DNA of 64,000 nt, taken from the NCBI RefSeq assembly GCF_003334315.1, contig NZ_QOWR01000008.1; one strand, given 5' to 3'. The DNA comes from Escherichia coli (GTDB taxonomy: Bacteria > Pseudomonadota > Gammaproteobacteria > Enterobacterales > Enterobacteriaceae). How positions within the stretch are numbered: position 1 is the first letter of the stretch; each line of letters opens with the position of its first letter. Made by a program: the position numbers and the translations under genes. Shown one piece after another: positions 33,839-51,628 of the stretch. Below the pieces are notes generated by a model. The model was not told the DNA's origin. It did no database searches and worked only from the letters and a program-made list of their open reading frames with translations.

Positions 33839-33914
33839 TCCTCTGTAGTTCAGTCGGTAGAACGGCGGACTGTTAATCCGTATGTCACTGGTTCGAGTCC
33901 AGTCAGAGGAGCCA
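33839..33914 (+). tRNA. asnT: tRNA-Asn (GUU)
   Basis: TCCTCTGTAGTTCAGTCGGTAGAACGGCGGACTGTTAATCCG...GAGCCA, 76 nt. Confidence 0.95.
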
Positions 33915-34227
33915 AATTCTAAAAATTCGCTTTTTTAGCGCAATGTTACTGACCTTAGTTGAACATTGTTTTTTAACGGATAGCGGGTTTTTAACATCTT
34001 AAGCGCCCTCGACCTTTATGGTTGAGGGCGTTTTGCTATGAACGCCATCACCATTTTCCCCTCGATTATAAAACTTGAGTTATTCAGTAGTCTCCCCTCT
34101 TGCAACTCACACCCAAAACTGCCTAACGAAAAGTTATTAATTTTCAATCATATTGCTATCAGGATTTACATTTTTTCGCTGTGCTAGAAAGGGCGCATTT
34201 ATGTTAGCTCGTTCAGGGAAGGTAAGC

Positions 34228-37200
34228 ATGGCTACGAAGAAGAGGAGTGGAGAAAAAATAAATGACCGACAAATCTTATGCGGGATGGGAATTAAACTAC
34301 GCCGCTTAACTGCGGGTATCTGTCTGATAACTCAACTTGCGTTCCCTATGGCTGCGGCAGCACAAGGTGTGGTAAACGCCGCAACCCAACAACCAGTTCC
34401 TGCACAAATTGCCATTGCAAATGCCAATACGGTGCCCTACACCCTTGGAGCGCTGGAATCGGCCCAAAGCGTTGCCGAACGTTTCGGTATTTCGGTGGCT
34501 GAGTTACGCAAACTCAACCAGTTTCGTACGTTTGCTCGAGGTTTTGATAATGTCCGCCAGGGTGATGAACTGGATGTCCCGGCACAAGTTAGTGAAAAAA
34601 AATTAACCCCGCCGCCGGGTAATAGCAGTGACAACCTCGAGCAACAGATAGCCAGTACTTCACAGCAAATCGGGTCTCTGCTCGCCGAAGATATGAACAG
34701 CGAGCAAGCGGCAAATATGGCGCGTGGATGGGCCTCTTCTCAGGCTTCAGGCGCAATGACAGACTGGTTAAGCCGCTTCGGTACCGCAAGAATCACGCTG
34801 GGCGTGGATGAAGATTTTAGCCTGAAGAACTCCCAGTTCGATTTTCTCCATCCGTGGTATGAAACGCCTGATAATCTCTTTTTCAGTCAGCATACTCTCC
34901 ATCGTACTGACGAGCGTACGCAGATTAACAACGGCTTAGGTTGGCGTCATTTCACTCCCACATGGATGTCGGGCATCAACTTCTTTTTCGACCACGATCT
35001 TAGCCGTTACCACTCCCGCGCCGGCATTGGCGCGGAGTACTGGCGCGACTATCTAAAATTAAGCAGTAACGGCTATTTGCGACTGACCAACTGGCGCAGC
35101 GCACCTGAACTGGACAACGATTATGAAGCCCGCCCGGCCAATGGCTGGGATGTACGCGCAGAAGGCTGGCTACCCGCCTGGCCGTACCTTGGCGGTAAAC
35201 TGGTCTATGAACAGTATTATGGCGATGAAGTGGCCCTGTTCGATAAAGACGATCGGCAAAGTAATCCTCATGCCATAACCGCTGGACTTAACTATACCCC
35301 CTTCCCGCTGATGACCTTCAGCGCGGAGCAACGCCAGGGTAAACAGGGCGAAAATGACACCCGTTTTGCCGTCGATTTTACCTGGCAACCTGGCAGCGCA
35401 ATGCAGAAACAGCTTGACCCGAATGAAGTCGCTGCACGGCGTAGCCTTGCAGGCAGCCGTTATGATCTGGTGGATCGCAACAACAATATCGTTCTGGAAT
35501 ATCGCAAAAAAGAACTGGTTCGCCTGCCCCTGACAGACCCCGTGACAGGGAAGTCAGGAGAAGTGAAATCACTGGTTTCGTCGCTACAAACCAAATATGC
35601 CCTGAAAGGCTATAACGTCGAAGCCACCGCACTGGAAGCTGCCGGTGGCAAAGTGGTCACAACGGGTAAAGATATTCTGGTTACCCTGCCGGCTTACCGG
35701 TTCACCAGTACGCCAGAAACCGATAACACCTGGCCGATTGAAGTCACCGCCGAAGATGTCAAAGGCAATTTGTCGAATCGTGAACAGAGCATGGTGGTCG
35801 TTCAGGCACCTACGCTAAGCCAGAAAGATTCCTCGGTATCGTTAAGTACCCAAACATTGAACGCGGATTCCCATTCAACCGCCACACTGACTTTTATTGC
35901 GCATGATGCAGCAGGTAATCCTGTTGTCGGGCTGGTGCTCTCGACGCGTCACGAAGGTGTTCAGGACATCACCCTTTCTGACTGGAAAGATAATGGTGAC
36001 GGAAGCTATACCCAAGTCCTGACCACAGGAGCGATGTCTGGCACGCTGACGCTGATGCCACAGCTGAATGGTGTGGATGCGGCTAAAGCCCCCGCCGTGG
36101 TTAATATCATTTCTGTTTCGTCATCCCGAACTCACTCGTCAATTAAGATTGATAAGGACAGTTATCTCTCCGGCAATCCTATCGAGGTGACGGTAGAACT
36201 GAGAGATGAAAATGACAAACCTGTTAAGGAGCAAAAACAGCAACTGAATACCGCAGTCAGCATCGACAACGTGAAACCTGGTGTCACTACAGACTGGAAA
36301 GAAACCGCTGATGGCGTCTATAAGGCAACCTATACCGCCTATACCAGAGGCAGTGGGCTTACTGCGAAGCTGTTAATGCAAAACTGGAATGAAGATTTGC
36401 ATACCGCTGGATTTATCATCGACGCCAACCCGCAGTCAGCAAAAATTGCGACATTATCTGCCAGCAATAATGGTGTGCTCGCCAATGAGAATGCAGCAAA
36501 CACCGTCTCGGTCAATGTCGCTGATGAAGGAAGCAACCCAATCAATGATCATACCGTCACGTTTGCGGTATTAAGCGGGTCGGCAACTTGCTTTAACAAT
36601 CAAAACACCGCAAAAACGGATGTTAATGGTCTGGCGACTTTTGATCTGAAAAGTAGTAAGCAGGAAGACAACACGGTTGAAGTCACCCTTGAAAATGGCG
36701 TGAAACAAACGTTAAATGTCAGTTTTGTCGGCGACTCGAGTACCGCGCAGGTTGATCTGCAGAAGTCGAAAAATGAAGTGGTCGCTGACGGCAATGATAG
36801 CGCCACAATGACCGCGACAGTCCGGGATGCAAAAGGCAACCTGCTCAATGACGTCAAGGTCACTTTCAATGTTAATTCAGCAGCAGCGAAACTGAGCCAA
36901 ACCGAAGTGAATAGCCACGACGGGATCGCCACAGCTACGCTGACCAGTTTGAAAAATGGTGATTATAGGGTTACGGCCTCTGTGAGCTCTGGTTCTCAGG
37001 CTAATCAACAGGTGATTTTTATCGGTGATCAAAGTACTGCTGCCCTGACCCTCAGTGTGCCTTCAGGTGATATCACCGTCACCAACACAGCTCCGCAATA
37101 TATGACTGCAACCTTGCAGGATAAAAATGGCAACCCACTAAAAGATAAAGAAATCACCTTCTCTGTGCCAAACGACGTCGCAAGTAAGTTCTCGATTAGC

Positions 37201-51505: not shown

Positions 51506-51534
51506 TTGACATCACCATGCACTGCCATTAATAT
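51506..51534 (+). promoter_or_regulatory. sigma70 promoter of asnV
   Basis: TTGACA, 17-bp spacer, TAATAT, GCGCC discriminator; same architecture as asnT promoter. Confidence 0.65.
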
Positions 51535-51552
51535 GCGCCCCGTTCACACGAT

Positions 51553-51628
51553 TCCTCTGTAGTTCAGTCGGTAGAACGGCGGACTGTTAATCCGTATGTC
51601 ACTGGTTCGAGTCCAGTCAGAGGAGCCA
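51553..51628 (+). tRNA. asnV: tRNA-Asn (GUU)
   Basis: identical to asnT sequence. Confidence 0.95.

Follow-up and report, generated by a model that had tools for sequence, protein, structure and literature searches.

An apparently island-free, K-12-like cluster of asn tRNA genes in an Escherichia coli chromosome

Are the asn tRNA genes of Escherichia coli, which have been described as sites of island insertion (PMC8209727), all free of islands in the strain of assembly GCF_003334315.1? We addressed this question in a 64-kb stretch of contig NZ_QOWR01000008.1 (hereafter the window), in which four tRNA-Asn genes lie within 17.8 kb. Our results leave very little doubt that these genes form the usual asn tRNA cluster of E. 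coli, in a K-12-like state without islands. Such a state is ordinary and already known, and nothing in it is novel.

Four identical tRNA-Asn genes and their junctions

ARAGORN detected five tRNA genes in the window, namely four tRNA-Asn(GUU) genes, all with the anticodon gtt at position 34, and one tRNA-Ser(CGA) gene. Each tRNA-Asn gene scored 72.6 bits against the Rfam tRNA model RF00005 (gathering score 29), and string comparison showed that all four are 76 nt long and base-for-base identical. The 76-nt sequence ends in GAGCCA, with the 3' CCA encoded, and it matched all four annotated K-12 asn loci exactly over its full length. Names were assigned from the gene order and flanks in the K-12 MG1655 annotation:

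33839-33914, plus strand: asnT, tRNA-Asn(GUU), supported by ARAGORN, Rfam and synteny with K-12 b1977
47320-47395, minus strand: asnW, tRNA-Asn(GUU), the sole minus-strand copy, supported by ARAGORN, Rfam and K-12 b1984
49144-49219, plus strand: asnU, tRNA-Asn(GUU), supported by ARAGORN, Rfam and K-12 b1986
51553-51628, plus strand: asnV, tRNA-Asn(GUU), supported by ARAGORN, Rfam and K-12 b1989

A preliminary description of the window had given the same coordinates, an 18-kb span, identical sequences and the same four names, all of which agreed with these results.

Emptiness of the sites was assessed by what we regarded as four independent tests: tRNA-end repeats, integrases, island DNA and colinearity with K-12. 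The 17-mer of the tRNA 3' end, CCAGTCAGAGGAGCCAA, occurred four times in the 64 kb, where chance predicts 0.17 occurrences, and each time within an asn gene (at 33899-33915 in the case of asnT). With up to 3 mismatches allowed, neither this 17-mer nor a 23-mer of the tRNA 3' end had a copy in the window outside the asn genes. Elsewhere in the window, blastn-short returned just chance matches of 9-14 nt, and a scan that tolerated 6 mismatches in 20 added a single match, a 6-mismatch chance one inside mtfA, at 33290. Integrase queries were taken from the high-pathogenicity island (HPI) of strain Nissle 1917 and from the pks island of strain FDAARGOS_1298. No homologue was detected in the whole window (best tblastn E = 0.45), no integrase is annotated across the colinear region in K-12 or in the 99.3%-identical strain F467, and no integrase family was found among the open reading frames (ORFs) of 55-64 kb. 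Probes of about 20 kb from the HPI and 3.8 kb from the pks island gave no blastn match in the window. Alignment with the island-free K-12 MG1655 yielded a single colinear block at 31291-55451 with 98.1% identity and four gap openings; these add up to 6 bases, and the largest, at 46963, is 3 bp long. At all four sites, the bases after CCAA were identical or nearly identical to those of K-12 and F467.

The preliminary description had proposed a search for direct repeats of the tRNA 3' end downstream of each asn gene, and a comparison with island-carrying strains. Both were carried out; neither an integrase nor a tRNA 3'-end repeat was found adjoining any asn gene, and the window lacks the junctions of Nissle 1917, FDAARGOS_1298 and strain 82.0311. 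Its view that the HPI and the pks island are absent from the asn sites of the window was upheld by repeats, integrases, island DNA and colinearity alike, and no evidence in the window contradicted the empty-site explanation.

The cluster runs mtfA-asnT-yeeJ...yeeN-asnW-yeeO-asnU-cbl-nac-asnV-ldtA-cobTSU. The 17-mer CCAGTCAGAGGAGCCAA at the tRNA 3' ends is the sequence that recurs at both limits of islands which P4-type tyrosine integrases have inserted at such sites. In the window its four copies are intact, and each continues straight into the native chromosomal flank, so that the sites are unoccupied and still available as targets. With the 17-mer intact, they are predicted to be competent for integration.

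Several points weigh against this explanation. Emptiness was defined relative to K-12, so that an insertion older than the species and common to K-12 would escape. The HPI of E. coli has been reported without its right-hand repeat (PMC8209727); the repeat test alone is thus not decisive for the HPI, for which the conclusion depends mainly on integrases, DNA and colinearity. The DNA probes are limited to the lengths of HPI and pks island given above, and the spacer between yeeN and asnW is rich in A+T and has diverged further than the sequence on either side.

Occupied and empty asn sites in other strains

Occupied sites in other strains served as positive controls. In Nissle 1917, a tyrosine integrase (recombinase) lies 162 bp after asnT and is followed by ybtS, ybtX, ybtQ, ybtP, ybtA, irp2 and irp1. 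The window resembles this HPI locus in the tRNA and in the mtfA-asnT context upstream, but where Nissle 1917 has the integrase and ybtS-irp1, it has yeeJ, without integrase or ybt DNA. In FDAARGOS_1298, clbP, clbQ, clbS and a tyrosine integrase adjoin asnW, the asn gene with yeeO upstream. In 82.0311, the clbA end of the pks island, with remnants of IS3 insertion sequences (IS), abuts ldtA, and at this right-hand end of the island a repeat-only 17-mer stands directly before ATTCAAAAAAGCCTG, the same sequence that follows asnV in the window. These controls support the earlier claim that asn tRNA genes are integration sites of the yersiniabactin and colibactin islands.

The occupied alleles part from the window right after ...GAGCCAA. 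In genomes without the empty asnT junction, the match stops at query positions 276-280, equal to window positions 33915-33919, at the tRNA 3' end. Because the controls reveal occupancy, the direct-repeat and junction tests are able to detect it, and both were negative in the window. The pks island can also use asnU or asnV, and in strains of phylogroups A and B1 it has been reported outside tRNA genes (PMC8209727), so that its absence from the window does not establish its absence from the strain. For the asnU site, 249 of 5,426 genomes were without the native junction, and island occupancy there is taken from PMC8209727. The window shares with pks-carrying B2 strains, which hold the island at asnW, asnV or asnU (PMC8209727; PMC6458436), the tRNA genes and the 17-mer that forms the flanking repeat of the island; it differs in being uninverted and island-free, whereas those strains carry the island and an inverted asnW...asnV block.

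To place the window among these states, junction queries were run against 5,426 complete E. coli genomes; the asnW query was balanced (300+76+300). The states were found as follows:

mtfA-asnT-yeeJ contiguous (empty): 2,645 genomes, 48.7%
mtfA-asnT-integrase (HPI type): 2,468 genomes, 45.5%
yeeO-asnW-yeeN side contiguous: 4,981 genomes, 91.8%
yeeO-asnW-integrase (pks type): 367 genomes, 6.8%
yeeO-asnU-cbl contiguous: 5,177 genomes, 95.4%
nac-asnV-ldtA contiguous: 4,667 genomes, 86.0%

At least 80% of positions 32600-57000 was present in one place in at least 1,238 genomes (23%), and the state of the window is thus common. The tRNA part of the junction queries matched at 4 places in the median E. 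coli genome, which makes the asn cluster the whole tRNA-Asn complement of such a genome.

Similarity between the copies reaches slightly past the mature tRNA, over 111 bp at 99% between asnT and asnV and over about 160 bp at 86% between asnU and asnV. This flank similarity would fit old duplications in which the tRNA part has been kept uniform.

Transcription signals, neighbouring genes and possible island remnants

A promoter scan placed a sigma-70 match of 10/12 positions 5' of all four asn genes, and RNA folding predicted a stable hairpin with a U run 3' of each (z-scores -5.3 to -6.1):

33792-33820, plus strand: promoter-like site of asnT, TTGACA-17-TAATAT, then GCGCC (10/12)
47442-47414, minus strand: promoter-like site of asnW, TTGACA-17-TAATAT, then TCGCC (10/12)
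49100-49127, plus strand: promoter-like site of asnU, TTGACA-16-TAAGAT, then GTGCC (10/12)
51506-51534, plus strand: promoter-like site of asnV, TTGACA-17-TAATAT, then GCGCC (10/12)
34001-34033, plus strand: terminator-like strong hairpin and U run of asnT (z = -5.9 for a 126-nt stretch; no indel against K-12)
47258-47228, minus strand: terminator-like GC-rich hairpin and U run of asnW
49227-49255, plus strand: terminator-like hairpin of asnU, 12-bp stem and U run
51635-51662, plus strand: terminator-like hairpin and U run of asnV

The asnT hairpin sits in the native asnT-yeeJ spacer, as in K-12, and the stop codon of cbl lies just past the asnU hairpin, at 49257. G+C-rich discriminators are linked to growth-rate and stringent control, and by sequence the four promoter-like sites match the stable-RNA (stringently controlled) sigma-70 type. 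With a promoter-like site and a hairpin of its own, each asn gene looks like a self-contained single-gene transcription unit, the promoter and terminator functions being predicted ones. The preliminary description had been right about TTGACA with TAATAT or TAAGAT at asnT, asnU and asnV; asnW, wrongly left out, has the same architecture. It had also placed GCGCC after the -10 element of those three genes, which was exact at asnT and asnV only, asnU having GTGCC.

The 24.4 kb around the asn genes matched E. coli chromosomes, with 99.3% identity in the best case. In F467 the order is serU, mtfA, tRNA-Asn, yeeJ, a family-9 glycosyltransferase gene (yeeL), shiA, amn and yeeN, continuing with tRNA-Asn (minus strand), yeeO, tRNA-Asn, cbl, nac, tRNA-Asn, ldtA, cobT, cobS and cobU. 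The genes and the spacer next to the asn sites of the window are:

34228-41304, plus strand: yeeJ, inverse autotransporter adhesin, the first gene 3' of asnT
46148-46864, plus strand: yeeN, convergent with asnW
46865-47319: yeeN-asnW spacer, AT-rich, 455 bp
47496-48983, minus strand: yeeO, MATE exporter, between asnW and asnU
49257-51226, minus strand: cbl and nac, LysR-type regulators, between asnU and asnV
51684-55057, minus strand: ldtA (erfK), cobT, cobS and cobU, conserved genes after asnV

Each asn gene had been said to be followed directly by core genes. The K-12 neighbours yeeJ, yeeN, cbl and ldtA are indeed in place, but yeeJ, a variable adhesin gene, is not strictly core; yeeN, convergent to asnW, is separated from it by the 455-bp spacer. 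The asn cluster of K-12 MG1655 (b1977, b1984, b1986, b1989) has the same genes, order, strands, flanking genes and tRNA sequence. The asnU-cbl (37 bp) and asnV-ldtA (55 bp) distances are alike, and the yeeN-asnW distance is 455 bp in the window against 452 bp in K-12. The window differs by about 2% of point differences, by a 350-aa ORF that is intact where K-12 has a yeeL pseudogene, and by another module beyond cobU, where K-12 has IS5H and CP4-44.

Two internal repeats of yeeJ (37263-37438 and 37575-37750) are about 71% identical and 312 bp apart, and they probably encode tandem immunoglobulin-like domains of the adhesin. The tRNA-Ser(CGA) gene is serU (32758-32847, minus strand), another island site that is empty in the window; yodB lies about 570 bp downstream of it, as in K-12, while the serU site of Nissle 1917 holds an island with tcpC, a MobQ relaxase gene and pil genes. 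F467 carries an IS1 within yodB (window position 31768) that the window is without. Upstream of the asn region, the window holds the fli operon, dcm and vsr, and two small RNAs stand in their usual chromosomal context, DsrA (14466-14552, minus strand, 102.5 bits) and RseX (22917-23006, plus strand, 97.7 bits).

Could at least one asn site hold a decayed island remnant that lost its integrase and whose repeat mutated beyond recognition, so that the sites are scarred rather than virgin? The candidate segments are the AT-rich 455-bp yeeN-asnW spacer and the yeeJ-yeeL segment after asnT. Positions 46000-46999 have 35% G+C, and the 500-bp bins over 46500-47499, which include the spacer, show 95-96% identity to K-12, lower than the 98-100% of the bins beside them. 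An ORF of 99 aa at 46909-47208 (minus strand), which is unannotated, had no NCBIfam match, and several strains have yeeJ annotated in fragments. However, neither candidate segment contains a tRNA 3'-end repeat, the sole extra match being the chance one inside mtfA, and neither has similarity to an integrase. The yeeN-asnW spacer is contiguous in 4,981 of the 5,426 genomes and so behaves as conserved backbone, and it holds the terminator-like hairpins of asnW. We consider a decayed remnant highly improbable. The 3-bp indel relative to K-12, at 46963, falls within this spacer.

The accessory DNA lies beyond cobU, as had been noted before. The window ceases to be colinear with K-12 at 55451, some 390 bp beyond cobU, where K-12 has an IS5H that is absent from the window; the annotation of the K-12 cryptic prophage CP4-44 starts just before this break. 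A further 885 bp past 55451 (yoeG/yoeH remnants) is common to both, and a different module follows:

55451-64000: accessory module littered with IS, comprising cbi and IS remnants, a PfkB-family kinase, a glutamine amidotransferase, a split DMT transporter, a phosphotriesterase-related protein, a ggt fragment and an ISL3 transposase

Its G+C content dips to about 40%. The ORFs beyond cobU with family matches are a PfkB/ribokinase-family kinase, a phosphotriesterase-related protein and an ISL3 transposase. A 404-aa ORF (57108-58322) was suspected from its size to be an integrase and was rejected as such, being the PfkB/ribokinase-family kinase, which carries an N-terminal DeoR/AgaR-like stretch. 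At least 80% of 55060-64000 was present in 1,842 genomes (34% of complete genomes), and the module is 100% identical in strain AHM9C68I. Because a cbi pseudogene remnant adjoins cobU, the evidence suggests that the module stands where a cbi/pdu region has been lost and not at a tRNA site; a lost region of this kind beside cobU is presumed by analogy with Salmonella.

That this DNA is instead the displaced body of an island once integrated at asnV and later separated by rearrangement is scarcely credible, even though it lies just 3.8 kb from asnV on its 3' side, is strewn with IS remnants, has the P4-type cryptic prophage CP4-44 as its K-12 counterpart at the same place, and adjoins a region that asn-asn recombination rearranges in other strains, since ldtA-cobTSU separates asnV from the module in all genomes examined, the cbi remnant directly after cobU fits the presumed replacement of cbi/pdu, and neither an integrase nor a tRNA-end repeat was found in 55451-64000.

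Inversions between asn copies and significance of the empty state

The window keeps the uninverted K-12 order. Relative to it, pks strains carry the block asnW-yeeO-asnU-cbl-nac-asnV in inverted orientation, with the island between yeeO-asnW and ldtA. A synthetic junction of the nac-asnV side with the yeeN side, which marks the inversion, matched in 265 of the 5,426 genomes (4.9%). The reciprocal island-free junction, yeeO-asnW-ldtA, matched in a single one of the 5,426, strain SE15. The SE15 locus (3924-9376 of its extracted stretch) contains a truncated second copy of yeeO and an inverted nac-cbl-asnU-yeeO block. A reading of SE15 as a clean site, inverted but empty, was rejected, because the locus is rearranged in a more complex way and includes a partial duplicate of yeeO; it may be a real rearrangement, the footprint of island loss or an assembly problem. 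In strain GSH8M-2 (6182-8080 of its extracted stretch), yeeO alone is inverted between asnU and asnW, which is a second kind of inversion between identical, opposed asn copies.

The inverted orientation has been described as specific to typical pks-positive B2 strains (PMC8209727), and the asnW/asnV inversion as possibly dynamic (PMC6458436). We therefore rejected this inversion as a new observation, both papers having it already. The orientation states seen here comprise the asnW-asnV inversion (265 genomes), the inversion of yeeO only (GSH8M-2) and the complex rearrangement of SE15. One might see in the identical asn copies, of which one is inverted, a small module for recombination that differs in orientation from lineage to lineage; the K-12-like state of the window would then be ancestral and island-permissive, and orientation would influence which copy stably holds an island. 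We regard this reading as improbable. If it were true, its novelty would be just a wider catalogue of states and the SE15 exception, the pks-linked inversion having been published.

For the empty, K-12-like cluster itself, the significance beyond strain description is small. The counts of empty junctions and inversions provide a useful typing baseline and leave the understanding of these sites unchanged. These results describe a strain without a yersiniabactin or colibactin island at the usual asn sites, one that has kept four intact targets.

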